Assembly (NCBI GenBank): GCA_964427735.1
Contig: CAYRUS010000001.1
Location: forward strand, 453,790 to 517,789
Length of the DNA stretch: 64,000 bases
Reading direction: 5' to 3'
Source of the DNA: an uncultured Gammaproteobacteria bacterium
GTDB taxonomy: Bacteria; Patescibacteriota; Microgenomatia; UBA8517
In this document: piece by piece, positions 47,225 through 64,000 of the stretch
Layout of the letters: each line of letters opens with the position of its first letter
Position numbering within the stretch: the first letter of the stretch is position 1
The notes under the pieces: generated by a model
Databases searched by the model: none
The model's input: only the letters and a program-made list of their open reading frames with translations
Told to the model about the DNA's origin: nothing
Program-made: the position numbers and the translations under genes

Positions 47225-49681
47225 TTACCAGGTTTTAAACCAATGATAGCTTTCATCAAGCCAAACTGGTACTGTTATGCCTGTGTAGCGAGGTAAAAAG
47301 TATATAAAAGCAACCATAGCTAAACTAAAAAACCACAGTCTCACTTTTTTATATTTTGCAAGAATAAATCCTAACAAAATTGCTAAAAAGGGAATGGACG
47401 GCAAGTAATGGTACAAAAACATAATTCTAGGCGAGGCTGCCCAAGGAACAAAAAATATTGCATACGAAAAAACTATTAGAGCAATCTTTTTAGCCCACTC
47501 ATTCTTTAAAGAAAAGTTTTTAATAACCAAATATACACATACCAATACCGCTATCAATCCTCCCCAAAAAACTATTGGATTCCCCATTATGTAAATATTG
47601 GAAACAACATTGTCAACAACTCCACCGGCATAAACCCAAATTGGTCTTAATAAAATTGGCCAACTCCACCATGGTGAAGTAAAAGGATGCTCTGCCTCCA
47701 AACGTGTGTGATACCACCACATTTGCTTTTGAACTCCAATAAATATGTCAAAACCGTGACCACTAGTGAACATTGGGATATAACTTGCCAAATAAACAAG
47801 AGGAGGTAACAAAATAAACCATATATAATTTAGTCTAAACTTTTTCCCTAGCAACAAAAATGCAATAGGAAAAATCGGCAATGCCCACAAAGCACTCCAT
47901 TTGGAAGCAAGAGCTAAACCATAAGCTATTGCTGAAAAAGCATATTTATCTTTAATAAATAGATAAAAAGACAATAAAACAAAAAATAATAAATAAGCAT
48001 CATTCATTCCAATTCTGCTTAGCCCTAGAGGCAAACCATCAAGAGCAAATACCGCAGAGGAGAAAATACCAACGTCTCTATTAAAAAGTTCCTTAGCGAT
48101 TAAATAAACCAATAAAACACTTCCTGTACCTAAAATTGCAGCGGGGAAACGCCAAGCAAAGGCCTGTTCTCCAAATATAGCCATTGAGAACCACATACCT
48201 TCTTTTGCAAGTGGAGGGTGAGTCCATTCATAGGCAAAACCTTCGGGATGGGGATTCCACCATTCCCAAGCCATTGGATTCCCTTGAAGCATTTGTCTTG
48301 CTGTAAAAGCATGATAAACCTCATCAAAGTACTCGTTCTTTGGTTCACTTAAACTTACTAATCTGACAAACAAAGATCCCAATAATACAAGCACTAAGAG
48401 AATTTTAATTTGCTTGTCTGTAAACACTTCATTAACAACTAGCTTTTCTGATTTTTTTGTCCCTGGATCTAAATTAAAAGAAAGAGAAAAAAGCTTACTG
48501 GTAGTGATTTTCACTTTTGAAGCATAAACCAAAATAGCCAATCCTAATACATTAATAATAGAAAATGCTTTCGATACAAAGACAGGAAAGACTTCTTTGA
48601 AATTGTTAGTTATCCAAACATAAGCGTAATATAGGTTTGCTAAATAACCTACAGATAAAGCAAGATAAACAAAAGCTGCTACTTCATAAAATGCAGATAC
48701 AATAGCCAGTGGGGCAAGAGCTGGAAGCAAATGTCTTTCATGAAGACGAGTAAAAAATACAAAGTTTGCCAAAAACAATACGGAAAGCAAAAAGTAGCTG
48801 GATTTTTCTTCTTTTTTTAATTTTATGGCCGTCAATATAAAAATAAATACTGTCATTAAATAACCAAAAAACTTATAAACAGGATTGTCGGGTCGCCAAA
48901 AGCCAAATATGCCCCAGAAATTAAAAGCATTTACACTGGTATATGGGTACTGATTTAAAGTTGTGTTAATTCTTTGAACTATAAACTCCATCAGTGATCC
49001 ATTATTCCAAAAAGGAACAAAGGCAAGAGCAAAAATAACTCCAGATAATAAAATATAAGTGGCAACATTAACTAATCTTGTCTTTCTTGTATACATTAAA
49101 TAAAGTACGACAAGTGCTACTAAAGCAGCTTGTGGCTTGACTAGTGTGCCAATAGCAAGGAAAAAAGCTGATAAGTACAAATTACTACCAAAAGAAAATA
49201 TAGTAAGTAAAGAAAAAAGTGCAGTTAAAGAGTCCACTTGTCCCCACAATGCCGAGTTTGCAAAAACTGCCGGGTTAAATAACCACATTCCACTAGCTAC
49301 TAATGCCTTTTTAGAAGAGGTATACTTTTTAACTACTAGGTAAACAAGATATCCGATCAAGACATCAGAAAAAATTGCGGGCAATTTATACAGTATGACT
49401 TCTGGTATTAAAATGGCTTGATTTATTTTCCCCAATAACCACAAAACATAAAGGTATCCTGGCAAATAATCAGACCAATTACTATAAAAATTCCTAAACC
49501 CATTTTCTGCAAGGTTATTACTCCAACTCAGAAAAGTGTTAAAATCAAGCTCAAGAGTACCAAAAGGAGACATAAAAATCCTTAAGGCCAGCGCTGCCAA
49601 GAGCAAAACCAAAATATTTTTATCAAATTTTATATCTCTAAAAAACCTCATAAATTTTAACTTCTTCATTAGTATACACAT
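47225..49681 (-). CDS. Large polytopic membrane glycosyltransferase: a GT-C-like N-terminal half fused to a PMT/ArnT-like (PMT_2) C-terminal half
   Basis: The second half carries YFDEVYHAFTARQM, matching the DE loop motif of PMT/ArnT-type GT-C enzymes. About 20 TM helices; 818 aa. Confidence 0.65.
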   Translation of the reverse strand: MCILMKKLKFMRFFRDIKFDKNILVLLLAALALRIFMSPFGTLELDFNTFLSWSNNLAENGFRNFYSNWSDYLPGYLYVLWLLGKINQAILIPEVILYKLPAIFSDVLIGYLVYLVVKKYTSSKKALVASGMWLFNPAVFANSALWGQVDSLTALFSLLTIFSFGSNLYLSAFFLAIGTLVKPQAALVALVVLYLMYTRKTRLVNVATYILLSGVIFALAFVPFWNNGSLMEFIVQRINTTLNQYPYTSVNAFNFWGIFGFWRPDNPVYKFFGYLMTVFIFILTAIKLKKEEKSSYFLLSVLFLANFVFFTRLHERHLLPALAPLAIVSAFYEVAAFVYLALSVGYLANLYYAYVWITNNFKEVFPVFVSKAFSIINVLGLAILVYASKVKITTSKLFSLSFNLDPGTKKSEKLVVNEVFTDKQIKILLVLVLLGSLFVRLVSLSEPKNEYFDEVYHAFTARQMLQGNPMAWEWWNPHPEGFAYEWTHPPLAKEGMWFSMAIFGEQAFAWRFPAAILGTGSVLLVYLIAKELFNRDVGIFSSAVFALDGLPLGLSRIGMNDAYLLFFVLLSFYLFIKDKYAFSAIAYGLALASKWSALWALPIFPIAFLLLGKKFRLNYIWFILLPPLVYLASYIPMFTSGHGFDIFIGVQKQMWWYHTRLEAEHPFTSPWWSWPILLRPIWVYAGGVVDNVVSNIYIMGNPIVFWGGLIAVLVCVYLVIKNFSLKNEWAKKIALIVFSYAIFFVPWAASPRIMFLYHYLPSIPFLAILLGFILAKYKKVRLWFFSLAMVAFIYFLPRYTGITVPVWLDESYHWFKTW

Positions 49682-51572
49682 TTCTCATATATGGTGAGTT
49701 ATCAAAATTAGCCTCTGCTTCCGGATATTCTCTCTTTTCAGCATTTCCATAATAAATATAATCAAATGAATATTTTGATTTTAATAGATCAAGATAAGCT
49801 TTATTATCTGGATTCGAATAGAACTTTTCGATTTCTTCAGATCTGACAAACACGTTATCTTCACCAGAGTTATATCCGTGGCTATGTGGCCAATTTATAT
49901 AAGAAAGAATTCTTAAACGTCCTGCAACTTGTGTGATTGGAGAATGAACAGTCGGTAATCCAACATAAACTGATTTTTGCGGTGTTTGCTGCCTCATCCA
50001 AATTCCTGCTTCATATTCTGGCAAAGTGTACGCCTGATTTTTATTTATAACACTCCAAAGCACAACCAAGAATGAACTCGAAATAGTAGTTAAAATCACC
50101 ACTATAGAAACAGCTTGTCCAAGAATCCTTTTTTGCTTAACTAAATCTGATAATACCCACCCTGTAATAACTGCAACCGGAATTATCATAAAGTAAAAAA
50201 ACTTAAACATATCTTTTTCATAGATAGTAAAAGTCACACTGTAAGGGATTATAAACAAGATTAAACCGAAGAAAAATAAATACCAAAAGTGTTTATTTTT
50301 AAAATCTTTTGCTAAAACTACCTTGACAGGTGCAATTAAAAATATCACAAAAGGTAAGCCAAAATTATTTAATATAAAACTAAGATGCCAATGGAAGCTT
50401 CTATCACTATTCCAATTTCCAAAACGAAAAGTTTCTTCCACCAAGTTAATCAATGAATTCCCATTAGTTTTAGTACCTAAAAACATTGGAGAAATAATTA
50501 AAATAGGAAGTATAAAAACAATAAGTAGTTCTATATTCTTTCTCAAACCTTTTATCGAAAAAAACAACAAATTAACCAAGCCAAACAATATAAAGCCAAC
50601 AATAAATGCAAAAAACTGGAATTTACTTACTAAGGCTGTTACAACTCCTGCAAGTAAAACTCTCTTATAATCCTTTTTTTCATACCCCGTGGACAAAACA
50701 TACGCAATAATTGCAACTGAAGGTAAACCAACCATCATGGGCCGGTTTTGTAAAAAATAATCAACCATTGGAGCCATCTGATACAAACCATTTGACTCTA
50801 TGCTGTAACCTCTATAAAGCAAGTCAATTATTGCAATAAAAATCGGTCTCTGACCAAGCTGAGCATTAACATCGGTTATAAATTTTATATAAATCCAATT
50901 GCTAAAAAATGCACCGATAACCGAAGAAATGATTGCTGCAACTTTATCTTTAAAAAGCAAATACGAAAAAGAATATATGCTAAAAGCAAAAGTAAAAATA
51001 AAAATAGGATTTGTATAAACTAAAACACGAGGAAAAAATTCAGACTTTAAAACATTAATTATTGCAGAGTGAAAATCTGAAAAATAATAATAAGTCATGA
51101 GCTTACCTGCATAGTATGGAGCTTGAGGAGGGAAATTACCTTCGGCAATACTTTCTATAATCCCAATGTGCATTGCTGTATCTTGCCAGTTAACAGCAGA
51201 TAAAACCACATAGTTATTATAAACAGTAAAAATTGCTGGATACAAAGCAAAAAACACTATGCCTAAACTTAAAATGGACACCACCCAAATAAATGTATGC
51301 TCTTTAAAAAAAGTAAGTTTAGGCTTTTTTATGTCAATTAAAAAAACCAGTGGTAAAAATATGGACATAGCAAATAAAACATAAAACCTGTTTAGTTTAA
51401 AAAGGGAAGCTACAAAATAGACTACATATGTTGAAAATAATACACTTAAAATAATGTATAAAGGAATTTTCTCAAGTGGCTCAAGTTTTTTGAAAAAAGC
51501 CTCTATAATAAGAACACCAGGTATAAAAAAAATAAACAAAAAACCTACAACAGCTAATAAATGATTAACCAT
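49638..51572 (-). CDS. Polytopic membrane protein, probably a GT-C-type glycosyltransferase
   Basis: 644 aa with many TM helices and the loop NWQDTAMHIGIIESIAEGNFPPQAPYYAG. This is a family-level guess only. Confidence 0.5.
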   Translation of the reverse strand: MVNHLLAVVGFLFIFFIPGVLIIEAFFKKLEPLEKIPLYIILSVLFSTYVVYFVASLFKLNRFYVLFAMSIFLPLVFLIDIKKPKLTFFKEHTFIWVVSILSLGIVFFALYPAIFTVYNNYVVLSAVNWQDTAMHIGIIESIAEGNFPPQAPYYAGKLMTYYYFSDFHSAIINVLKSEFFPRVLVYTNPIFIFTFAFSIYSFSYLLFKDKVAAIISSVIGAFFSNWIYIKFITDVNAQLGQRPIFIAIIDLLYRGYSIESNGLYQMAPMVDYFLQNRPMMVGLPSVAIIAYVLSTGYEKKDYKRVLLAGVVTALVSKFQFFAFIVGFILFGLVNLLFFSIKGLRKNIELLIVFILPILIISPMFLGTKTNGNSLINLVEETFRFGNWNSDRSFHWHLSFILNNFGLPFVIFLIAPVKVVLAKDFKNKHFWYLFFFGLILFIIPYSVTFTIYEKDMFKFFYFMIIPVAVITGWVLSDLVKQKRILGQAVSIVVILTTISSSFLVVLWSVINKNQAYTLPEYEAGIWMRQQTPQKSVYVGLPTVHSPITQVAGRLRILSYINWPHSHGYNSGEDNVFVRSEEIEKFYSNPDNKAYLDLLKSKYSFDYIYYGNAEKREYPEAEANFDNSPYMRNVYTNEEVKIYEVF

Positions 51573-52730
51573 ATTAAAAAGTTTATATCAAAAGAAAAAT
51601 TACTGTTAATTTTATTATTTTCAATTTCTCTTTTTATATACTACTTAACTTCAGCAGGAAATACTCCCTATGACTACTTTACCAGATTAGCATCTGCTTT
51701 TTTACAAGGAATGTATTGGATTGAAAACCCACCCCAATGGCTAAACGAGGTTATTCCTTATCATGGAAAATATTATGTTGTTTACCCTCCTATGCCTGCC
51801 ATTGTTCTTATTCCATTTGTATATTTATTTGGAGAAAGTTTTCCTCAACAACTATTAGCACACTTAATGGGTGCCGGGATTGTTGTATTTTCTTATAATG
51901 CGGTACTTTCTTTGACTAAAGTAAAAAAGATCGCACTCTGGTCAGCATTACTTATTGGCTTGGGTAGTATTGTCTGGTATTTATCAGCTACGGGATCTGT
52001 TTGGTATCTTGGTCAAGTTTCCGCTGCATTCTTTATGACTGCAGCTTTGTATTTTGTTTTAGAAAAAAAATTTTTTTTGAGCGGCTTGTTTCTCGGAGCA
52101 TCCTATCTTTCAAGAGTACACACTATCGCTGCTATTCCTGTTTTTTTGTATTTGTCTTATAAACACAAAAAAAAATCAATTCTTTCATTTGTAACAGGTG
52201 TACTGCCGTTTTTGATTTTCAATGCTTTATATAATTATGTGAGATTTGGAGTTCCTTGGGATATTGGCTATAAGCTCATTCCCGGAGTATTAGAAGAACC
52301 ATGGTATCAAAAAGGTCTGGTGCATCCTAGCTATATATTGTCTCATTTAAAAATAATGTTTTTAGCCTTACCTAAATTACTAAATGAATTTCCATATATC
52401 CAACCATCTTGGGCAGGATTAGCAATCTGGATAACTACTCCAGCTTTTGTATTTTGTTTGTTTGCTCCATTAAAACAAAATATTACAAAATTTTTATGGT
52501 TGTCTTTATTATTGGTTTCAATACCTGTTTTAATGCACGGTGGAACAGGCTTTACGCAGTTTGGATATAGGTATGCTGTTGATTTTTATCCACTTCTTTT
52601 ACTTTTAACTGCTTTAGGTGTCAAAAAAACAGGCCTAAAAAAATACCACTGGGTTTTATTAATTATTGGAGTAATCGTTAATCTGTGGGGAGTACTATGG
52701 ATTAATAAATTTGGTTGGATAAGTTATTAA
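51561..52730 (+). CDS. PMT_2/ArnT-like GT-C membrane glycosyltransferase
   Basis: 389 aa polytopic. N-terminal loop GNTPYDYFTRLASAFLQGMYW...YHGKYYVVYPPMPAI, typical of the PMT_2 family. Confidence 0.55.
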   Translation: MINHIKKFISKEKLLLILLFSISLFIYYLTSAGNTPYDYFTRLASAFLQGMYWIENPPQWLNEVIPYHGKYYVVYPPMPAIVLIPFVYLFGESFPQQLLAHLMGAGIVVFSYNAVLSLTKVKKIALWSALLIGLGSIVWYLSATGSVWYLGQVSAAFFMTAALYFVLEKKFFLSGLFLGASYLSRVHTIAAIPVFLYLSYKHKKKSILSFVTGVLPFLIFNALYNYVRFGVPWDIGYKLIPGVLEEPWYQKGLVHPSYILSHLKIMFLALPKLLNEFPYIQPSWAGLAIWITTPAFVFCLFAPLKQNITKFLWLSLLLVSIPVLMHGGTGFTQFGYRYAVDFYPLLLLLTALGVKKTGLKKYHWVLLIIGVIVNLWGVLWINKFGWISY

Positions 52731-52788
52731 AAAACTTAATTTATTCAAAAATATATATTTAATCTTTCTTTTGCAAATCTGCTATCAA

Positions 52789-53874
52789 TTAATTATTAAG
52801 TAAATTAGACACCCAATCATGAATCTCGCTCCAGTCACCAGATCTAGGAACAAATACATACAAATTATCATAATCTTCACTTGGCTCTGGATTTTCTAAA
52901 AGCGTCTCATCTATCACTTCTGAATGAATATTTTCTTTTGCTACATATGCAAATCTAGCCACTGCTGCAGCCTCTTCTTGAGAGAAATCTGTTTCTACAT
53001 TGTTCTCTGCAATACCAATAAGCTCTTTTATCTTTACTGGAGAAGCAACAACCTCTGCACTAATCAATTTATCCCTCAGTGCCATGATTACTTTTTGTTG
53101 CCTGCGACTTCTAGCTGTGTCTGTACCTTCTTCACCTTCAGCATGCCTGGATCTTACAAATTTAAGAGATGTTTCTCCATCCATATGCGTCAATCCTGGT
53201 TCAAAAGTTATTGTTTCATATCGACATCTTAATTGAATATCTCCTTCACAATTATCATTTTCTCTGCCCGGAATAGGGTACATATGATCGGTAAAACCAT
53301 TGTCAATAACTACATCAATACCTCCAACAACATCAATTGCACCTTTAAAAGCCTCAAAATCAACTACAACACCATAATGAACCGGCAGACCTACGATTTC
53401 TTCAACTGTTGCTTTAGCAAGCAATAGACCTCCATTTTCTTGCTTTTGATTTCCCCAATAATAAATACTGTTGAGTTTTGCTCTAAGTTCAGAAATCCAA
53501 ATATCACGAGGGAGAGAAATAATAACAATATCTCCACCATCATCTGGTACAGATACAAACATTATTGTATCTGTCAGGTCAGGTGCTTCGTGTCCCGTGC
53601 CTCCTTTCCCTAAAACTAAAATATTGGTCCTGCCTTCAAATGATTTGACTTCACCACTTCTTGCAAATACAAACTCATACAAAGCGTTTGTATATTTTGT
53701 TACTCCTGCTTCCTTTAGATAATTTTTAGCCAAAAAGGCAGTAATCAATATAAATAACACTAGACCTCCTGCAACAAAAAGCCGTATAGCCTTGTTGTGA
53801 ACTAAAATCCTTCGTTTTAGTTTTGATAATTTGATATAAAGTTTTCCTTTTTTGGTATTTGTTTTGTTGTCCAT
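52789..53874 (-). CDS. LCP (LytR-CpsA-Psr) family phosphotransferase
   Basis: TNILVLGKGG...DTIMFVSV...IISLPRD core motifs of the LCP domain, after an N-terminal TM helix. Confidence 0.85.
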   Translation of the reverse strand: MDNKTNTKKGKLYIKLSKLKRRILVHNKAIRLFVAGGLVLFILITAFLAKNYLKEAGVTKYTNALYEFVFARSGEVKSFEGRTNILVLGKGGTGHEAPDLTDTIMFVSVPDDGGDIVIISLPRDIWISELRAKLNSIYYWGNQKQENGGLLLAKATVEEIVGLPVHYGVVVDFEAFKGAIDVVGGIDVVIDNGFTDHMYPIPGRENDNCEGDIQLRCRYETITFEPGLTHMDGETSLKFVRSRHAEGEEGTDTARSRRQQKVIMALRDKLISAEVVASPVKIKELIGIAENNVETDFSQEEAAAVARFAYVAKENIHSEVIDETLLENPEPSEDYDNLYVFVPRSGDWSEIHDWVSNLLNN

Positions 53875-55788: not shown

Positions 55789-56601
55789 ATGATTACAACC
55801 CCATCTGATAAAAAACTCGCAAAACTGCTTCTAACACATAAACAAATGGCTCAGGTCTATAGAAATGGAACAGAGGAAGATTTCAGTCCCTACTTCTTCA
55901 AAATATCCAGCGATAATCAATATCTTTATTTTGTAGGTGCTAGACATACAAACGATCCATCTGATTATCAAATTCCAAAAATACTAAATCTATGGAAAGA
56001 GTTTCTAAACAAAACCACTAAACAAAATAGTATCGTTTTGGTAGAAGGAGGAGGTGCCCCGGTAGAAATGTCAGTGGAAGATGCTATTAAAAAATACAAT
56101 GGCAGCGGTCTACCTGTCTATTTAGCAAATCTAGAAAAGATTAAATATTACTCGCCAGAACCAGACGAAAAAATGGAAATCCAATATCTTCTCAATTTTT
56201 TTACGAGAGAAGAAATTCTTAATAGCAGATTTGCATCTTTAATCTACCAATGGCATCGGTTTTTAGAAAAACCTGACTTCGAAAAATACATGTATAAATA
56301 TTTGAATCGATATCAGAAAATGGCATTATGGAACGACATAGAGTTTACTATTAACTACGTCAAAGAGGTGCATAACCATATGCATAATCATCCGTTTGAT
56401 CTAGAAAATATAGAATGTTTTATAAAAGATTCAAATCCCTCAGAAAATCAAGTGTCAAGTTTATCGAATATATTCCGTGACATTTATATTGTCAAAGAAA
56501 TAATAAGACAATGGAATGAAGGTAAAAGTATTTTTATAGTTTACGGATCGGGACATGCAATTGTCCAAGAGCCAGCTTTAAAAAAACTACTGAAAATTTA
56601 A
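55789..56601 (+). CDS. Hypothetical protein, possibly TraB/GumN/Tiki-like
   Basis: N-terminal YLYFVGARHT and C-terminal VYGSGHA resemble the GTxH ... GxGH pair of the TraB/GumN family. Confidence 0.4.
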   Translation: MITTPSDKKLAKLLLTHKQMAQVYRNGTEEDFSPYFFKISSDNQYLYFVGARHTNDPSDYQIPKILNLWKEFLNKTTKQNSIVLVEGGGAPVEMSVEDAIKKYNGSGLPVYLANLEKIKYYSPEPDEKMEIQYLLNFFTREEILNSRFASLIYQWHRFLEKPDFEKYMYKYLNRYQKMALWNDIEFTINYVKEVHNHMHNHPFDLENIECFIKDSNPSENQVSSLSNIFRDIYIVKEIIRQWNEGKSIFIVYGSGHAIVQEPALKKLLKI

Positions 56602-56690: not shown

Positions 56691-57086
56691 TTATATTGAT
56701 AATGTATAACCTTCTAAGCTCTTCAAAATATTCATATCCGCCATACAAACCATCCAGGAATTGTAATTTCCATTATTAAATGCAAAATTAGCTAATCTGT
56801 TCAATTCTACAATTCTCTCTTTTATATATTCATTAGCTTCACGGCTGTCTCCGTGTTGAAGACCGATGATAGCCAACCTTAAATGCTTTACTCTCTCGAC
56901 TACAACTTGAACTTTTTCTTCAATTGTTAATAGTCCTGTCCCATTGTCTACCAGTGTGTCAACAATTGCATCTAGTTCTTGCGTATTGACTTGGGTAACA
57001 AGCTCATAAGATTGCCACTGATAATCAATATAGTCCTTTATGCGAGTAATATCTTCTGGAATAGTAGGCCTAATCTCCCTTTCCAC
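56691..57086 (-). CDS. Hypothetical protein
   Basis: 131-aa ORF. Confidence 0.4.
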   Translation of the reverse strand: MEREIRPTIPEDITRIKDYIDYQWQSYELVTQVNTQELDAIVDTLVDNGTGLLTIEEKVQVVVERVKHLRLAIIGLQHGDSREANEYIKERIVELNRLANFAFNNGNYNSWMVCMADMNILKSLEGYTLSI

Positions 57087-57129: not shown

Positions 57130-58224
57130 ATGGATACCAATAGAATAAGTAGTTCTGAAAAAAACATCTTCAACAAATATGCAGTTCATCCACTTCAGTC
57201 TTGGGAGTGGGGCGAATTTCGCAAAAAATGGGGGAACGAGATTATTAGACTTGGAAATTACTCAGAAAAAAATCTTCAAGATTCTATTCAAGTAGTATTC
57301 AGTAAAATCCCTAGATCTAAATATAAGATTGGAACAGTTTTAAGAGGATCAAAACCTAACAAGAAAACATTACAAAAACTCAAAGAAATTGCTAAAGAGA
57401 AAAATGCTGTTTTTATTAAACTTGAGCCAAACGCACTCCTAAATATATCACCTGTAATCAAAAATACTGATTTTGATAAAACAAATGTGTTAAAAAAAGT
57501 CCCAAATAATCTAAAAGCTTCTAAAAAAGATTTACAAATTTTAGAAAAAGAAACAATACCAGGAAAAACACTTTTTACTCCTACTTCTTTCTGGATTGAC
57601 CTTAGCAAAGATGAAGATACCTTAATGAAAAACATGCACCCTAAAACCAGATACAACGTTCGTTATGCAGAAAAAAAAGGAGTTGTAATTATTGAAGATA
57701 ATTCAGACAAAGCTTTTGAAAAGTATATAAAATTAACCAGAGAAACAGTCGAAAGACAAGGTTTTTATGCTCATACTGAAAACTATCATAGGTTAATGTG
57801 GCAAACCCTCCATAAAGAGATGGTTGAAAGGAAAGATAAACCTATTGCACGATTACTTACTGCTCGATTCAGAAAAGAAATTCTAACTACCTGGATTGTG
57901 TTTGCCTGGAATGATTTTTTGTATTACCCATATGGAGCATCAAGTAATAGACGTAGAAACCTTCAACACAGCAGTGCAATGATGTGGGGTGCAATTTTAT
58001 ATGGCAAGAAATTGGGTTTAAAATGGTTTGATTTATGGGGGAGAGAAGAGGGACAAGGATTTACTCGATTTAAAGAAGGCTTTAACCCTTATGTTGTGGA
58101 GTTTATGAAAACTTGGGACTTGCCTACTACCAAACTTTATTGGCCATATCGCTTAGCAGAGGAGGGACGCTGGCTTTATTTACGAACAAAAGCAAAAACT
58201 GGTTTGATTAAGCACAGATTTTGA
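57130..58224 (+). CDS. FemAB-family aminoacyl-tRNA-dependent peptidyltransferase (FemX-like)
   Basis: QSWEWGEFRKKWG and KTRYNVRYAEKKGV match the FemABX K-x-RYNIR-x-A-x-K-x-GV motif. C-terminal GFTRFKEGF. Confidence 0.75.
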   Translation: MDTNRISSSEKNIFNKYAVHPLQSWEWGEFRKKWGNEIIRLGNYSEKNLQDSIQVVFSKIPRSKYKIGTVLRGSKPNKKTLQKLKEIAKEKNAVFIKLEPNALLNISPVIKNTDFDKTNVLKKVPNNLKASKKDLQILEKETIPGKTLFTPTSFWIDLSKDEDTLMKNMHPKTRYNVRYAEKKGVVIIEDNSDKAFEKYIKLTRETVERQGFYAHTENYHRLMWQTLHKEMVERKDKPIARLLTARFRKEILTTWIVFAWNDFLYYPYGASSNRRRNLQHSSAMMWGAILYGKKLGLKWFDLWGREEGQGFTRFKEGFNPYVVEFMKTWDLPTTKLYWPYRLAEEGRWLYLRTKAKTGLIKHRF

Positions 58225-58228
58225 AATT

Positions 58229-58948
58229 TTATATTTTGGAGTCAATCCATTTCATAAATTCTTTTATGTAATCCCTTTTAATTTTAACTTCTTTTTTAGT
58301 TCTTGCTGGATACATTCTGTAGACGTCATAATATGAAGTAAAATCAATAATAACCGGAAGCTTAGTTTTTTGCTCAATAATTACATTTCTGAAATTAAAC
58401 CCGTCATCAAGCTTTTTAATATCAAAATCAGGCAGCCATTCGAGTTCTTCTATCATAGAAAGTGAAGAGGCCAAGAAGTTGTATATGTTTTTTAAAACCT
58501 TATTATCTCTTAGCGAAGCCGCAATCTTGAAACTGTCATCACCTTCAACAAAAGTTTGATACATAAAATTAGTATTATCCTTCCTTTTAAATTCTGTTTT
58601 AGCAACAAAACTTTCAGGAAAGTAGTTTAAAAGTTTATTATAAGCAGTCTCAGTATTTTCAAGATACTTTAAATCGTTTACTTCAGGGAAAATTCCTGCA
58701 GCTATTTTTATAACTTTATCTTCTTTAAGAAATACAGACCATTCCCAACCCGCACCTATATTTTTATAATCTTTATATTTTCTCAAAGCATTACTCGATT
58801 CAGCTTTGTTATAAATAAAATTCCAAAGGCTTGTCTCAATTCTTTCTAATTCTTTTTCTGATTTATCTAAAAAATCTTTTAGTCTATAGTCATCCTTATC
58901 AGAAGTTCCCCAAGATTTTGGATAGTTACTGTCAGTAAAATTAATCAC
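58229..58948 (-). CDS. Hypothetical protein with a faint protein-kinase-like signature
   Basis: DDGFNFRNVII (D..N catalytic-loop-like) followed by PVIIDFTSY (DFG-like). 239 aa. Very tentative. Confidence 0.35.
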   Translation of the reverse strand: MINFTDSNYPKSWGTSDKDDYRLKDFLDKSEKELERIETSLWNFIYNKAESSNALRKYKDYKNIGAGWEWSVFLKEDKVIKIAAGIFPEVNDLKYLENTETAYNKLLNYFPESFVAKTEFKRKDNTNFMYQTFVEGDDSFKIAASLRDNKVLKNIYNFLASSLSMIEELEWLPDFDIKKLDDGFNFRNVIIEQKTKLPVIIDFTSYYDVYRMYPARTKKEVKIKRDYIKEFMKWIDSKI

Positions 58949-59049
58949 AATTTCTTATAAAAGATAACATATATAAACCAAAACACGAAAGTTTATAGCA
59001 AAAACAATAACTATACACATCAATTTTAGTTAATTGTTATAATAAGTTT

Positions 59050-59787
59050 ATGGGAAACCACTATAAGATAAGTGTGATGGAGACATATGATGCTTGGTAT
59101 GCAAACAACATACCCAAAATAAGAAACGGAGAATGGAATTTAGTAGATCAAGAGATTCTTCAAAATCCTGAAAACGATCGATTGCGTGGTTTAAATATTA
59201 TTGCATATGTACCAGAAATAATTAATCAAGCAATTAATTCCAAAATTATAGCTTCCTTAGGAGCGGTAATAGGAGACGTTAGATGGATAATTCCAGAACA
59301 GGGAAGACATTTTACAATTTTAGATATTATTCCACACAATAGTGGTATCTCGTTTAAGGAACAAAAAGAACAGTTACCTAATTATTTGAATGTTATAAAA
59401 AATGCAGTTGATGACTTTAGCGGGAAAGTTCAAATTACTCTGGAAGGAGTATTTGCCAGCCCAGATGGTGTAACTATTCAAGGATATCCTTCAAATGACG
59501 GTTTGCACAATTTAAGACAATTACTCAGAAACAATTTAAACAGCGCAAGACTCACGAACCTAGAACACAAAAAGTACGTAATAGAAACAGCTCATGTTGC
59601 ACTAGTTAAATTCATACAACCTGCGGATGGAGAGAAACTCCTGGCAACTGTAGACAAATTAAGACATATTGATATCGGAATTTTTGAAGTAAATGAAATA
59701 GTTTTAAACTTTAGTCCTCGTTACGACAAACATGAAACAATAGAGGTTGTAGAGCGTTTTGCAGTTAAACAATATTCTCCCCTATAG
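59050..59787 (+). CDS. Hypothetical protein, possibly a 2H (LigT-like) phosphoesterase
   Basis: Two H-x-T/A-x motifs about 100 aa apart (RHFTIL and TAHVAL) flanked by hydrophobics, as in the 2H superfamily. The second motif is imperfect. Confidence 0.4.
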   Translation: MGNHYKISVMETYDAWYANNIPKIRNGEWNLVDQEILQNPENDRLRGLNIIAYVPEIINQAINSKIIASLGAVIGDVRWIIPEQGRHFTILDIIPHNSGISFKEQKEQLPNYLNVIKNAVDDFSGKVQITLEGVFASPDGVTIQGYPSNDGLHNLRQLLRNNLNSARLTNLEHKKYVIETAHVALVKFIQPADGEKLLATVDKLRHIDIGIFEVNEIVLNFSPRYDKHETIEVVERFAVKQYSPL

Positions 59788-60640
59788 TAATATGATTGAC
59801 ATTAGGCAAACTAAACCATACGCGGAATACATTAAAAGAAACGGTTGGATAGTGGAAGGAGGGGAGGGGGAGTATATTTTTATCAGGAAGTTTCCCTTAA
59901 TAGGAAGTTTTATAAAAGTTCAACGACCAGAAAAAATAAATAAAGTATTTTTACAAAAAATAGAAAATACTGCTAAAAAATTTCGATCAGTCCAAATTGT
60001 TATTGAACCAAAAAGTAAGAAAGATAAAAAACTGCTTTTAAATTATGGGTACAAGCAAAGTAAGAACCCATACTTGCCAAGCAAAACATTAGAACTAGAC
60101 TTAACTATATCAAACCAAAAACTTTTCTCCGCACTTCATAAAAACGCTAAGCACTCTCTTCATATTACTGAAAATTTAATTCTTTCACGAAATCCCGATG
60201 TGAAAAGCTTTCAACAGGCATGGAAAAACTCTATCGGATACAGACGTTATGTGCCTAGTAAGCACAAATTAGAATATATTATGGGGTGTTTTGCCTCCTC
60301 TGCACTCTTCTTGGCGTCGCACAATAATAATTTGATTTCAAAAAATACAGTTACAGCAGGTGCAATTTTTCTAATTGCAGACAAAAAAGCATATTATTGG
60401 CAGGCCTTTGCAAACAAAGAAGGTCGTGGTCAGCTAGCCCCCTATCGCCTTCTCTGGGAAGGCATATTGTGGTCGAAAGCAATGGGAGCAAAAGCCTTTG
60501 ATTTTGAAGGTATTTACGACAACCGCTTTCCTAATAAATCGTGGTTGGGTTTTTCCTATTTTAAGGGGAAATTTGGTGGTCATAAGGTTGTTTATCCAGG
60601 AGCATATACAAAAACTACACTCACTAATATGCTAAGATAG
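59759..60640 (+). CDS. FemAB-like (Acetyltransf_6 / BioF2-like) transferase
   Basis: C-terminal LGFSYFKGKFGG matches the FemAB-family GxxxFKxxFG motif. GNAT-like fold pattern; 293 aa. Confidence 0.55.
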   Translation: MQLNNILPYSNMIDIRQTKPYAEYIKRNGWIVEGGEGEYIFIRKFPLIGSFIKVQRPEKINKVFLQKIENTAKKFRSVQIVIEPKSKKDKKLLLNYGYKQSKNPYLPSKTLELDLTISNQKLFSALHKNAKHSLHITENLILSRNPDVKSFQQAWKNSIGYRRYVPSKHKLEYIMGCFASSALFLASHNNNLISKNTVTAGAIFLIADKKAYYWQAFANKEGRGQLAPYRLLWEGILWSKAMGAKAFDFEGIYDNRFPNKSWLGFSYFKGKFGGHKVVYPGAYTKTTLTNMLR

Positions 60641-60644
60641 CTTC

Positions 60645-61079
60645 ATGGTCTTAAAAATTTTTATAATTGTATTCGCTGCTATGATCGCAACTTCATTTTG
60701 GGAAGCCTATGTAGAAGGAAGAAATGCTTGGGATAAGGGTAAATATGGGTGGAAAATAAATTTCGCTAAAAATTTTAAATTAACTGGCTATCATTTTTTC
60801 TTGTTTGGGGTTACGTTTCCGCTGCTACTGCTTTTGCCATTAGTTGTTTCAGGATGGGATACAAAACTGTTTGGTGTCCTTTTTAGCGCTTACACCGCAG
60901 GTCTTGTTATAGAAGACTTATTTTGGTACATAGTAAACCCAGTTGTAAAATTTAAAGAACACAATCCTAATTTTGCAAACTACTACCCATGGTTGAAACT
61001 AGGAAGAATTAACATTCCCCTTTTGTATCTACTAGCTCTTGGTTTGAGTTTAGCTTCCTGGTACTTTCTTTGGAGGTAA
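60645..61079 (+). CDS. Small polytopic membrane protein
   Basis: 144 aa with four TM helices. Confidence 0.45.
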   Translation: MVLKIFIIVFAAMIATSFWEAYVEGRNAWDKGKYGWKINFAKNFKLTGYHFFLFGVTFPLLLLLPLVVSGWDTKLFGVLFSAYTAGLVIEDLFWYIVNPVVKFKEHNPNFANYYPWLKLGRINIPLLYLLALGLSLASWYFLWR

Positions 61080-61119
61080 AAATAGAAATCTAACCTCTTA
61101 CTTATTAAAATAATTAATA

Positions 61120-62124
61120 ATGAAAGATCTCCTAAACAAACACGTTTCACTATTTATCAGAAACTTAGAGGCAATCGATTATCTGGAAAACTTTCTAGTT
61201 TCAGCAGTGGCAGCAATACTAGCAATAAGAGTTTTTTTAACGCTAACCGGCTTTCCTCAAATTGCAGGAGCGGGTCTTCATATCGCACACGTTCTGTGGG
61301 GAGGTGTGTTTATGGCAATAGCTTTGTTTTTTTCATTATTTTTTTTAAACAAAGAAGCAAGACACATCTCTGCCGTACTTGGTGGTGCTGGGTTTGGAAC
61401 TTTCATAGATGAACTTGGGAAATTTATTACTGCTGATAACAACTACTTCTTTCAACCAACAATTGCATTAATATATTTGATCTTTGTCATTTTGTTTTTA
61501 CTTATTAGAACATTGGAAAAAAACATTCAGCCGACTCAAAAAGAATATGCACTTAATGCACTTGAACATGTAAAAGAAGCCGTTTTTAATGACTTAGATA
61601 AAATTGAAAAAGAAAAAGTTGAACTGTATCTAAAAAAGATGGACCCTAAGGACTCAATCACTAAAGCCATAATACAAATACTTGAGTCAGAAAAGCTAAA
61701 AAACAGCGAAGATGTATATATATTGTCTCGTCTAAAAAATTACTTGCGAACTAAATACACACAAACTGTTAGAAGAAAACGATTTGCAAATTACATCATG
61801 TGGTTTTTTGTAATTATAGCTTTTGCAAATTTAGTTAATGCATTTCTGGATACAACTCAGGTACTAAACTTTTGGGACGTTGGACTTGTACTTTCTTCTC
61901 TTTTATCTGTAGTTTATATACTGTGCGGGGTCTATTTCTATTACAAAAGTCATCACTTGAAATCATATCAGTCTTATAAAATGTCTGTTATCGTCTCAAT
62001 TTTATTGGTACAATTTTTTAAGTTTTATCACAACCAATTATCAGCATTAATTGGACTTCTCGTTTACACAACAGTGTTGGCCGCACTTGATTTTTTAATT
62101 TCAGAACTAGAGCCTGCGAAATAA
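61120..62124 (+). CDS. Polytopic membrane protein
   Basis: 334 aa with TM helices at both ends and a central soluble region. Confidence 0.45.
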   Translation: MKDLLNKHVSLFIRNLEAIDYLENFLVSAVAAILAIRVFLTLTGFPQIAGAGLHIAHVLWGGVFMAIALFFSLFFLNKEARHISAVLGGAGFGTFIDELGKFITADNNYFFQPTIALIYLIFVILFLLIRTLEKNIQPTQKEYALNALEHVKEAVFNDLDKIEKEKVELYLKKMDPKDSITKAIIQILESEKLKNSEDVYILSRLKNYLRTKYTQTVRRKRFANYIMWFFVIIAFANLVNAFLDTTQVLNFWDVGLVLSSLLSVVYILCGVYFYYKSHHLKSYQSYKMSVIVSILLVQFFKFYHNQLSALIGLLVYTTVLAALDFLISELEPAK

Positions 62125-63203
62125 GACTCATTTTTGTTAGAAAATCTAAAAAAATCCGGGAAATATTTAGGTTTTTGCAGTATTCCTCTTTCTATTAGAT
62201 TTTTTATTTCCGGTGAAAATTTGCTATTTACCTTCCCTACATAAAGCAAACTCAAATCTCCGCCCTCTCTAATATAATCTTCAATTTCATAGAGACCTTG
62301 TAAGTAAACATGATCCTTTATGAAACCTCCACCACGATGTGCTCTTAATGATAATTGCCAAGCCTGTTCATTATTTAACCTGTAAGATTTTAATCTCTCG
62401 AAAGTCTGTTTAAAATTCTCACCTTTAATAACGCAGTCAACAGCAATAACTCTTCCAGCATAATCTTTTAGGCAATTGTTATTAAGCGTATCTGTTACTT
62501 TTTCTGCATATACTGCAAGACCTTCTTCTGTTACTAAATAATCCTCACTAAATTCTCCCCAAATTCTAGAGTCCTGAGATCTACCATTTTCATATCTATA
62601 AATATGTACTTTAACCTCGTGATTAACAAGCCTTTTAATATCATTTTGGCTGTATTTTCTCTTCTTGTTAATAAAAATTGTTTGAAGAGCGTTATTTACA
62701 AATGCTCCATGTTTGTCATGATATTTTACTTTCCACCCACTTATATTTTTAAGTGATTCCTTGATTTTCTCTACTACTTCATTTGAAGAAAGTGTTTTTT
62801 CTTCGTCTGAATTTTCTAATTCATTTAGCAGATTCTCCGCCTTATAAATTAATTTTTCCGAAGGTCTATGAAACAAAAAAAGACTTAGTTCTCTAACTTC
62901 CCTGCTACCTCTTATCTCAACTATTTTATTTTTAATTTGTAGCTTATGTATTTTTCTTTTATAATGTGAAGTGCTCTCACATTCTGGTATTTTCAAGTTT
63001 TCAAGAAATTTAGATACTTCGTTATAGTCATAATCTGGCTCTGCATAAGAAAATTTAGGAGTTTTTATTTTTCCTTTAAGAAACTCTCTTTTTTGTTCTA
63101 GAGAGTTGGTCGGTTCAATGTAGTGAATTATCTTTAACTTCTTGGAGATTTTCTCAAGGGTTTTATCTATTTCTACTAAGCTTCTTGCGGCAGGATCTTT
63201 CAC
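62064..63203 (-). CDS. DUF1704-family (QEGLA motif; MATCAP-like putative metallopeptidase) protein
   Basis: HEVKVHIYRYENG (HExxxH), TEEGLAVYAE (QEGLA-type motif), and AHRGGGFIKDHVYLQG. Confidence 0.6.
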   Translation of the reverse strand: MKDPAARSLVEIDKTLEKISKKLKIIHYIEPTNSLEQKREFLKGKIKTPKFSYAEPDYDYNEVSKFLENLKIPECESTSHYKRKIHKLQIKNKIVEIRGSREVRELSLFLFHRPSEKLIYKAENLLNELENSDEEKTLSSNEVVEKIKESLKNISGWKVKYHDKHGAFVNNALQTIFINKKRKYSQNDIKRLVNHEVKVHIYRYENGRSQDSRIWGEFSEDYLVTEEGLAVYAEKVTDTLNNNCLKDYAGRVIAVDCVIKGENFKQTFERLKSYRLNNEQAWQLSLRAHRGGGFIKDHVYLQGLYEIEDYIREGGDLSLLYVGKVNSKFSPEIKNLIERGILQKPKYFPDFFRFSNKNESYFAGSSSEIKKSSAANTVV

Positions 63204-63259: not shown

Positions 63260-64000
63260 TTACTTTGATGAAGTATCTAAAAAATTAGGTAAATACTTTG
63301 GTGGCTGTAATATGCCTTCATTTAATAATCTTTCTACCATGTCTAAGTGATGTAAGCCAATTTTACCTACATAAAGTATTTTTGCGTCTCCCCCTTTTTC
63401 TATGTAATCTTTAACTTTAAAATATCCGTCTAAATAAACATAATCCTTTGTAAATCCACCGCCTCTGTATGCCCTTAGAGTCAAATCCCATGCCATTCCA
63501 TTCTCTATGTCAAAATCTTTAAGTCTTGCGAAGGCTTCTCTAAAACTTAGATTATTCAAGACTGAGTCAACCGAAACAACTCTCCCGGCATAACTTCTCA
63601 ACACACCTGGATTACTATTACCTGTAACTTCCTCGTTATATGTTGCTAACCCCTCTTCTGTCATCATGTAACCAGGAAGCCCTTTTGCAAAAAGCTTCCA
63701 AGGTTGAAGAGAACCATTTATACCTCTATAGATATGGGTCTCAACTTCATGGACCAAAAGTCTTGCCGCCTCACTTTTACCAAACATTCTCTCTTTATTC
63801 AAATAAAGAGTACGACGAGGTCGATCAAGAAAAACACCATATTTGGAATGATACTCTACTGTCCATCTGATTTTGTACTGATTAAAATAATCTTCAAAAT
63901 GCTTCTTTATTTCCGAAGCTGGCAATTCTTTACTTTCTTCTTCTACTTTTTCGTCTCTGAGAATCTCTTCTGCTTTAGTTAATAATGCTTTATCTGGTTT
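63260..64000 (-). CDS. Second DUF1704-family paralog; its N-terminus runs off the right edge
   Basis: HEVETHIYRGINGS, TEEGLATYNE and AYRGGGFTKDYVYLDG align with the neighbouring paralog. The reading frame stays open upstream of the annotated Met through position 64000. Confidence 0.6.
   Translation of the reverse strand, partial: KPDKALLTKAEEILRDEKVEEESKELPASEIKKHFEDYFNQYKIRWTVEYHSKYGVFLDRPRRTLYLNKERMFGKSEAARLLVHEVETHIYRGINGSLQPWKLFAKGLPGYMMTEEGLATYNEEVTGNSNPGVLRSYAGRVVSVDSVLNNLSFREAFARLKDFDIENGMAWDLTLRAYRGGGFTKDYVYLDGYFKVKDYIEKGGDAKILYVGKIGLHHLDMVERLLNEGILQPPKYLPNFLDTSSK

Follow-up and report, generated by a model that had tools for sequence, protein, structure and literature searches.

A predicted 2H phosphoesterase encoded next to FemAB-family transferases in some CPR bacteria, with a possible accessory role in cell envelope synthesis

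The closest described counterparts of the genes treated here are the FemX, FemA and FemB transferases, the LigT/ThpR-type proteins of the 2H superfamily, the smallest protein-kinase-like domains and the modules that heal RNA ends. In Staphylococcus aureus, paralogous Fem genes lie near each other in one locus (femAB), and the same is true of the DNA analyzed here, a stretch of 64,000 nt from the 759,860-bp contig CAYRUS010000001.1 (hereafter the window). In a cluster of six open reading frames (ORFs) at 57130-62124, two FemAB-family genes, FemAB1 and FemAB2, are found together with genes for a predicted 2H phosphoesterase (2H), a protein-kinase-like protein (PKL) and two membrane proteins (TM144 and TM334). 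The named homologs of 2H, PKL and FemAB2 come from Shapirobacteria, Woesebacteria and Microgenomates, i.e. from bacteria of the candidate phyla radiation (CPR), which account for a large share of bacterial diversity and whose cell envelopes are almost uncharacterized. A first-pass annotation of the sequence had speculatively grouped the six ORFs, all of which were confirmed by an ORF check at the coordinates given there, into one module for wall cross-bridges or peptide modification with tRNA-end processing. As described below, the 2H, PKL and FemAB components are each a sequence-divergent new member of a known fold, and we tentatively read the 2H protein as an accessory enzyme in the synthesis or salvage of envelope precursors.

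Neither the 2H protein nor any of its 19 close homologs matches a Pfam or NCBIfam family, the best score being that of a single member at E 0.13. When a profile of the family was searched against the PDB, the sole match was 1vdx (PH0099, 2'-5' RNA ligase-like; E 0.0019), and the RHxT and AHxA segments of the family aligned onto both HxT motifs of PH0099. Comparison of the AlphaFold model (predicted local distance difference test, pLDDT, 90.8) with the PDB by Foldseek returned 38 matches at E <= 1e-3, all of them 2H proteins. The best was again 1vdx (E 6.2e-9, target-normalized TM-score 0.76), while further matches included TT0787 (1iuh), Deinococcus drCPDase (5h7e), E. coli LigT (5ldm), ASCC1, AKAP18, Usb1 and 2H-like mitoribosomal subunits. 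An exhaustive search with the family profile yielded 572 representative clusters, just 13 of these at E <= 1e-30. The distant full-length relatives that were sampled exceed the gathering score of PF13563 (2_5_RNA_ligase2), e.g. P0187 with 36.7 bits against a required 27, and relatives from this wider family also match the ThpR model TIGR02258 weakly. Since the fold evidence and the transitive sequence evidence agree, we assign the ORF to the 2H/LigT fold, as the first-pass annotation had suggested, and regard its product as a rare, lineage-restricted cytoplasmic protein with predicted phosphoesterase activity.

The two catalytic histidines, one per lobe, are H87 in motif 1 (R86-H87-F-T89) and H182 in motif 2 (H182-V-A184-L). 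Both are invariant in 20 of 20 subfamily sequences, and T89 is likewise invariant. Motif 2 departs from the expected pattern at position +2, where Ser or Thr is replaced by Ala (A184) in at least 90% of the subfamily; Ser is found there in P0015 as well as in two more distant proteins, P0178 and P0183, and the wider family carries the canonical HxT at both motifs. Additional hallmarks of the subfamily are an invariant P95-H96-N97 following motif 1, seven invariant basic residues and, at the N-terminus, a conserved helix some 45 residues long, with the conserved positions Y13, W16, N20 and W29. Members of the wider family stand alone in Bacteroidota and Gammaproteobacteria, one such protein being annotated as 'mutarotase' at NCBI. 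The wider family of about 230 residues, N-terminal extension included, also occurs in fusions, namely TIR-2H-NB-ARC, 2H-NB-ARC-TPR, Metallophos-NB-ARC-TPR-2H and 2H-Cupin (P0266, P0296, P0315 and P0278, all distant relatives of the protein encoded at 59050-59787). The STAND-type architectures among them are typical of conflict systems.

For the first of the two transferases, family membership could be read directly from sequence. FemAB1 matches PF02388 (FemAB) with 98.1 bits (cutoff 24; E 6.5e-28) and Acetyltransf_6 with E 8.8e-7, and in the PDB it matches the S. aureus lipid II:glycine glycyltransferase FemX (6snr; phmmer E 1.2e-12) and FemA (1lrz; E 0.015), in keeping with its earlier description as a FemX-like enzyme of 364 residues. 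The alignment with 6snr leaps from query 230/257 to target 223/310, i.e. about 27 query residues stand against target positions ~223-310. FemAB1 is therefore missing the long, tRNA-binding coiled-coil insertion that separates the two GNAT-like domains of S. aureus FemX and FemA, and its length resembles that of the shorter Weissella-type FemX. FemAB2 passes the PF02388 cutoff marginally and over its C-terminal part only (24.6 bits against 24), and its match to 6snr (E 0.25) is not significant alone. Judged from its alignment with FemAB1 (21% identity across 275 residues, E 8e-5), it is a diverged paralog of the latter. The family around it, very large and found in CPR bacteria, consists of proteins of about 270 residues, with PF02388 precomputed on nearly all of the 120 homologs listed, and several homologs are named 'peptidoglycan bridge formation FemA/FemB' (Woesebacteria, Microgenomates, Patescibacteria). 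The assignment of FemAB2 to the FemAB family thus stands, but its proposed length of 293 residues does not: that figure (59759-60640) is counted from an upstream TTG overlapping the 2H gene. Read directly from the sequence, the start is instead the ATG at 59792, 4 nt past the 2H stop, which agrees with the database gene call P0055. Both proteins are ordinary FemX-type enzymes for this bacterial group and would, by family membership, transfer amino acids from aminoacyl-tRNA to a peptidoglycan precursor.

The 2H subfamily is represented here by ten independent genomic contexts and the PKL family by seven, with three contigs that are ~99% identical in DNA (L010, L012 and L014) counted as one. Adjacency of 2H to FemAB genes was seen in three of the ten, all within one sub-lineage and each with its own arrangement. 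In the window the order is FemAB1, PKL (opposite strand), 2H and FemAB2; in L005 and L006 it is FemAB1-2H with a 1-nt gap and FemAB2 absent; and in L010, L012 and L014 it is FemAB1-FemAB2-2H, in L012 as a tight tandem. The spacing is 1-10 nt in every arrangement, and the FemAB1 orthologs adjoining 2H in the relatives are 50-65% identical. A neighbor-joining tree of 2H places the three FemAB-linked contexts on separate branches of the main subclade, interspersed with L011 and L017, whose neighbors are unrelated. All three share a UvrD gene upstream of FemAB1; it abuts FemAB1 in the relatives, and in the window two ORFs intervene. The window and L005 also have PMT and LytR_cpsA_psr upstream. Contig L010 (CAYREZ010000057.1) was deposited under an 'uncultured Gammaproteobacteria' metagenome-assembled genome, yet is ~99% identical in DNA to the CPR-like L012 and L014; it is probably a mis-binned contig, bearing the CPR-type FemAB1-FemAB2-2H cluster. 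Decay of the 2H gene in L010 and L014, as an apparent frameshift might suggest, was rejected because the frameshift comes down to a single A6/A7 homopolymer difference, one extra A compared with L012, between ~99% identical contigs.

A different setting is found in the sister subclade, where 2H lies within a glycosyltransferase (GT) operon, overlapping its flanking genes, in both known contexts. The order in L018 and L002 is APH-like kinase, PMT_2, GT1, 2H, GT2 and PMT_2, with five operon genes conserved at 37-57% identity gene for gene, and no tRNA-using enzyme is present in either operon. A distant PKL homolog is located one gene upstream in L002 (profile E 1e-48). Both GT operons pair 2H with a kinase-fold gene, as does the window. 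In L002 a PurD-like ATP-grasp gene comes after 2H. This PurD-like (GARS) gene is split over two ORFs in L002 (8696-9931), probably by an assembly frameshift, and is one intact gene of 411 codons in L003 (2448-3683), which encodes a 2H protein identical to that of L002. The position of a glycine-ligating PurD-like enzyme beside 2H parallels the FemAB adjacency in the window. Among the remaining contexts, MurT is found two genes downstream of 2H in L004, and the 2H gene of L001 abuts a type I restriction-modification system. In the wider family, a 2H gene of Catenovulum adriaticum (pCadTS8_2; L023, 4189-6687) follows rluD-pgeF on the same strand after a 57-nt gap. As pgeF encodes the peptidoglycan editing factor, this is one more, isolated instance of a peptidoglycan-related neighbor, and the plasmid contexts of the wider family show no consistent theme.

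The six-gene module of the first-pass annotation does not stand as a unit in these contexts. FemAB1, FemAB2 and 2H recur together in the one sub-lineage, whereas PKL is near 2H in two of the ten 2H contexts, occurring elsewhere in five of its own seven, and the membrane proteins never recur. With the folds holding and a subset of the genes co-conserved, the proposal nevertheless escapes the refutation that the first-pass annotation had foreseen, namely failure of the 2H and kinase assignments together with lack of co-conservation, and is supported in part.

PKL is even less visible to sequence searches than 2H. Single-sequence searches returned nothing from Pfam, NCBIfam or the PDB; its family of 31 members has no Pfam or NCBIfam match either (the best being Kinase-PolyVal at 0.059 in one member), and the family profile found no kinase in the PDB. 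In a Foldseek search of the PDB with the AlphaFold model (pLDDT 96.8), kinases nevertheless fill the whole top 50, led by OspG (4q5e, E 5e-5) and including NleH (4lrk), CK2, PKA and Lpg2603. The TM-scores are modest, at most 0.58 when target-normalized (NleH2) and 0.3-0.47 when query-normalized. Going by this model, the small kinase-like protein of the first-pass annotation is a minimal protein-kinase-like fold, closest to OspG/NleH. Residues G67-W68, K81, E89, Q131, W171, P173-D174 and D202-F203 are invariant in the family, and N188 is nearly so. From their places in the predicted secondary structure we infer that these correspond to kinase motifs: two strands flank G67-W68, K81 is part of a predicted strand (VIKIP), D174 comes after a long central helix, N188 before a strand and D202-F203 after one. 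K81, E89 and D202 are thus candidates for the beta-3 Lys, the alpha-C Glu and the DFG-type Asp. The canonical catalytic loop D-x4-N is not matched, in that N188 comes 14 residues after D174, the two enclosing a predicted beta-hairpin, and the residue at N-5 is Gly183. Because this spacing is 14 and not the canonical 5, we treat the fold as given by the model and the protein as a putative kinase. A comparison of PKL with the APH-like ORF of L002 by hhalign gave a probability of 0.1%, at the low power of a single-sequence template.

Of the readings considered for the locus, the one that we favor, tentatively, is that 2H serves as an accessory enzyme of envelope-precursor synthesis or salvage, with its substrate class, its kinase partnership and its coupling to FemAB as predicted elements. 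The region would then be a cell-envelope neighborhood of a CPR (Microgenomates-type) genome, in which FemAB1 and FemAB2, as their family suggests, may add amino acids to the peptidoglycan stem peptide. The 2H gene would be co-transcribed with FemAB2 in the window and with FemAB1/FemAB2 in the relatives, and would be translationally coupled to GT1, GT2, PMT_2 and the APH-like kinase in the sister subclade. 2H would hydrolyze or transesterify a phosphodiester or cyclic phosphate that neighbors a vicinal hydroxyl in a nucleotide- or phospho-sugar precursor. Possibly this step takes place downstream of a kinase, which would be PKL here and the APH-like kinase, with or without PKL, elsewhere. This scheme builds on what the analysis showed, i.e. 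the folds and the catalytic His pair, along with gene order and operon-like spacing. It is supported by the persistence of the FemAB adjacency over three arrangements on three branches of the 2H tree. What the partners of 2H have in common is the synthesis of envelope precursors, with nucleotide-sugar and lipid-linked substrates, and not tRNA, which argues for an accessory role in this synthesis. Accessory rather than housekeeping is also what the numbers suggest, since 2H has 20 clusters against at least 785 for FemAB2.

Several observations weigh against this reading. We know of no 2H enzyme in envelope biosynthesis, and the characterized members, as far as we are aware, all act on RNA or nucleotide ribose phosphates. 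The wider-family relatives resemble ThpR/LigT and are fused to TIR/NB-ARC STAND modules, which indicates nucleotide or RNA substrates. Adjacency to FemAB is seen in just three of ten independent contexts, every time with the unrelated UvrD upstream, and the close relatives in L011 and L017 (~50-55% identity) have no envelope neighbors. Moreover, chance adjacency is made likelier by the density of CPR genomes and by the many GT and PMT_2 genes in them. A bolder version, in which the CPR 2H subfamily is the first 2H enzyme recruited to envelope biosynthesis, together with a kinase-fold partner (PKL or APH-like), we hold to be unlikely. In such a case 2H would act on a peptidoglycan or glycan precursor, where it would make, open or remove a phosphodiester or cyclic-phosphate group, and this precursor would then be aminoacylated by FemAB or glycosylated by GT1, GT2 and PMT_2.

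It is conceivable, if doubtful, that there is no functional link at all, the locus being a standard FemAB cross-bridge locus with 2H, PKL and the membrane proteins as unrelated neighbors and the recurrence of FemAB with 2H a matter of inherited synteny. The UvrD gene makes this a live alternative, as it too is kept in all three FemAB-linked contexts, and neither it nor the AddA-like helicase often found downstream has an obvious functional tie to the cluster. In the same direction point the FemAB2-type genes, about 40 times more numerous than the 2H family, the unrelated neighbors of 2H in L011, L017, L001 and L004, the occurrence of PKL mostly away from 2H, and the restriction of TM144 and TM334 to this genome. 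Nevertheless, the adjacency of FemAB and 2H has outlasted at least two rearrangements, with the genes within 1-10 nt each time. Shared ancestry of the gene order also leaves unexplained why the 2H gene of the sister subclade is translationally coupled in a conserved GT operon, and why members of the PKL and 2H families, both very rare, are adjacent in two otherwise unrelated contexts.

The company kept by PKL elsewhere bears on a second alternative, which concerns RNA. Its homologs are located after ATP synthase in one context, 15 nt after a CCA-adding enzyme in another (L021, 6616-8741), downstream of RtcB and an IMPase-like gene in a third (L022, 5127-8714), directly after an HD hydrolase in a fourth and in front of a NUDIX hydrolase in a fifth (L019, 4989-6448, and L007, 8001-9427). 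A nucleotide or RNA-end theme could be read from this, and plausibly also chance, translation-related genes being so common in CPR genomes that such neighbors carry little weight. The first-pass annotation had linked the cluster to tRNA-end processing; 2H would then open 2',3'-cyclic phosphates on tRNA acceptor ends, with PKL as end-kinase or regulator, and the healed tRNAs would be recharged for use by the Fem transferases. A kinase and a cyclic phosphodiesterase (CPDase) form the classic end-healing pair, FemAB enzymes use aminoacyl-tRNA, and the closest structures and profiles for 2H are LigT/ThpR-type RNA 2',3'-cyclic phosphodiesterases, all of which, along with the CCA-adding, RtcB, HD and NUDIX neighbors of PKL, was counted in its favor. 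We still consider it improbable, and tRNA-end processing found no direct support. The PKL fold is protein-kinase-like (OspG/NleH) and not that of a P-loop polynucleotide kinase, the window contains no tRNA gene and no Rfam RNA, and Pfam and NCBIfam scans of the ORFs at 55.8-63.9 kb revealed no ligase family. RtcB was seen only near the PKL homolog of L022. Furthermore, the GT-operon contexts of 2H are devoid of tRNA-using enzymes, and motif 2 is without the phosphate-binding Ser/Thr.

Lastly, a small conflict/defence or signaling-nucleotide pair of 2H and PKL inserted in an envelope locus, 2H degrading or processing a 2'-5'-linked or cyclic nucleotide signal, is very unlikely and was rejected as leading reading together with a mobile origin: the STAND-type fusions of the wider family (TIR, NB-ARC, TPR, Metallophos), the restriction-modification system abutting 2H in L001, the effector kinases closest in structure to PKL and the seeming insertion of PKL relative to L005 and L012 speak for it, but no cluster protein matches PADLOC or PHROGs, neither family has relatives in viral contigs, the fused proteins sit in a distant canonical-HxT branch outside the CPR subfamily, most 2H contexts are biosynthetic, and base composition around the cluster shows no anomaly.

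Table 1. Features of the cluster, in window coordinates.
Feature	Coordinates	Strand	Description
FemAB1	57130..58224	+	364 aa; FemX-like transferase, predicted to depend on aminoacyl-tRNA
PKL	58229..58948	-	239 aa; minimal protein-kinase-like protein (from structure model)
PKL/2H divergent intergenic region	58949..59049	.	one promoter-like site
2H	59050..59787	+	245 aa; predicted LigT-type 2H-superfamily phosphoesterase, N-terminal helical extension
FemAB2	59792..60640	+	282 aa; short, diverged FemAB-family transferase
TM144	60645..61079	+	144 aa; uncharacterized small membrane protein
TM334	61120..62124	+	334 aa; uncharacterized membrane protein with six predicted transmembrane segments, closes the + strand run

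None of the four enzyme ORFs is a chance reading frame; they are real genes, as each has conserved homologs, with 20 homologous clusters for 2H, 32 for PKL and at least 785 for FemAB2, and the two that were modeled, 2H and PKL, both gave high-confidence structures. FemAB1 and PKL are convergent with a 4-nt gap, and PKL and 2H are divergent with 101 nt between them. On the plus strand, the spacing from 2H over FemAB2 and TM144 to TM334 is 4, 4 and 40 nt, respectively, and these four genes probably form one transcription unit. A consensus scan located a promoter-like site, TACACA-18-TGnTATAAT, at 59014-59043, immediately 5' of the 2H ATG. The region as a whole has 24 such sites against 26.7 expected from shuffled sequence, and promoter and terminator counts alike are no higher than this expectation, so that the operon calls were made from spacing. 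The GC content of the cluster (0.32-0.34) is the same as in the remainder of the window.

The two membrane proteins proposed in the first-pass annotation are hydrophobic as claimed, TM144 with about three hydrophobic segments and TM334 with six and a soluble helical segment in the center, but they do not belong to any conserved module. TM144 has no match in Pfam, NCBIfam, PADLOC or PHROGs, TM334 has sub-threshold library matches only, and neither has a relative in 22 related loci at E <= 1; as putative genes they are supported by ORF length, tight spacing and hydrophobicity. TM144 likely shares a transcript with 2H and FemAB2, in this genome only, and both membrane proteins are part of a local transcription unit outside any conserved system. 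The 3' end of TM334 overlaps by 61 nt with a convergent gene of the MATCAP/QEGLA type (DUF1704, TIGR02421). This is the first of two tandem metallopeptidase-like paralogs, at 62064-63203 (-) and 63260-63925 (-), with Pfam E-values of 4.8e-60 and 3.1e-49, the second without approximately the first 120 profile positions. Between UvrD and FemAB1 are orf270 (55789-56601, +; 270 aa), with a weak TraB/PrgY/GumN match (E 0.009), and orf131 (56691-57086, -; 131 aa), without family assignment. As UvrD abuts FemAB1 in L005, L006 and L012, these two look like lineage-specific insertions. The MATCAP/QEGLA peptidases, orf270 and orf131, like TM144 and TM334, were rejected as module members, none having a relative in the related loci at E <= 1. 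Farther upstream, an envelope block at 47225-53874 comprises a PMT-type GT-C glycosyltransferase (818 aa), a 644-aa ORF without family match, a 389-aa protein with eight transmembrane segments, which shares 56% identity with the corresponding L005 protein, and LytR_cpsA_psr. The PMT, eight-segment, LytR and UvrD families all precede FemAB1 in L005 too, in a slightly different order from that in the window.

In full-text literature searches of an incomplete collection, no paper pairing 2H/LigT with FemAB/FemX was found. Neither the FemAB+2H arrangement nor the presence of 2H within glycosyltransferase operons appears to have been described so far. The evidence for linkage is thin and confined to few lineages. 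Should envelope precursors indeed be what 2H and its kinase-fold partners act on, the reach of the 2H superfamily would go past RNA and nucleotide substrates, and CPR wall synthesis would gain a new step. If 2H instead serves the tRNA pool of the Fem transferases, RNA-end repair would be tied to wall synthesis in a new way, and if the adjacency is inherited synteny only, what is left is an ordinary FemAB pair with unrelated neighbors. Either way, two families invisible to Pfam gain confident fold assignments and candidate catalytic residues, making the locus a sound annotation gain and a testable lead on CPR envelope biochemistry.

Compared with known systems, the cluster shares with RNA end-healing modules (the fungal/plant Trl1 kinase-CPDase and the bacterial Pnkp/Hen1) the adjoining of a kinase-fold and a 2H CPDase-fold gene, a pairing that recurs in two unrelated contexts. 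It differs from these modules in that PKL is not a P-loop protein, the cluster has neither a ligase nor a methyltransferase partner, PKL and 2H are divergently transcribed here, and most homologs of the two are not neighbors. With OspG/NleH, the smallest protein-kinase-like domains, the PKL model has in common a similarly small domain and a reduced C-lobe that ends shortly past the DFG-equivalent strand and one long helix. Unlike these, it shows no sequence similarity to any kinase family, has a 60-residue N-terminal extension with an invariant P10/R22 motif and a non-canonical catalytic-loop spacing, and comes from a free-living or episymbiotic CPR bacterium instead of being a secreted effector. 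The bilobed fold and the two His motifs of 2H are those of LigT/ThpR proteins (PH0099, 1vdx; TT0787, 1iuh; LigT, 5ldm; PF13563/PF02834). In contrast to them, 2H is about 60 residues longer, with a conserved N-terminal helical extension, has HxA rather than HxS/T in motif 2 in addition to the invariant PHN, and has FemAB or glycosyltransferase genes, not RNA-repair genes, as partners. As for the FemX/FemA/FemB enzymes (PF02388; S. aureus FemX, 6snr; Weissella FemX), FemAB1 is a clear member and FemAB2 a diverged paralog. Both differ from the S. aureus Fem enzymes in lacking the long coiled-coil insertion, FemAB2 being shorter still (282 aa), and the cluster differs from known Fem loci in that a gene for a predicted 2H phosphoesterase is interleaved among the FemAB genes.

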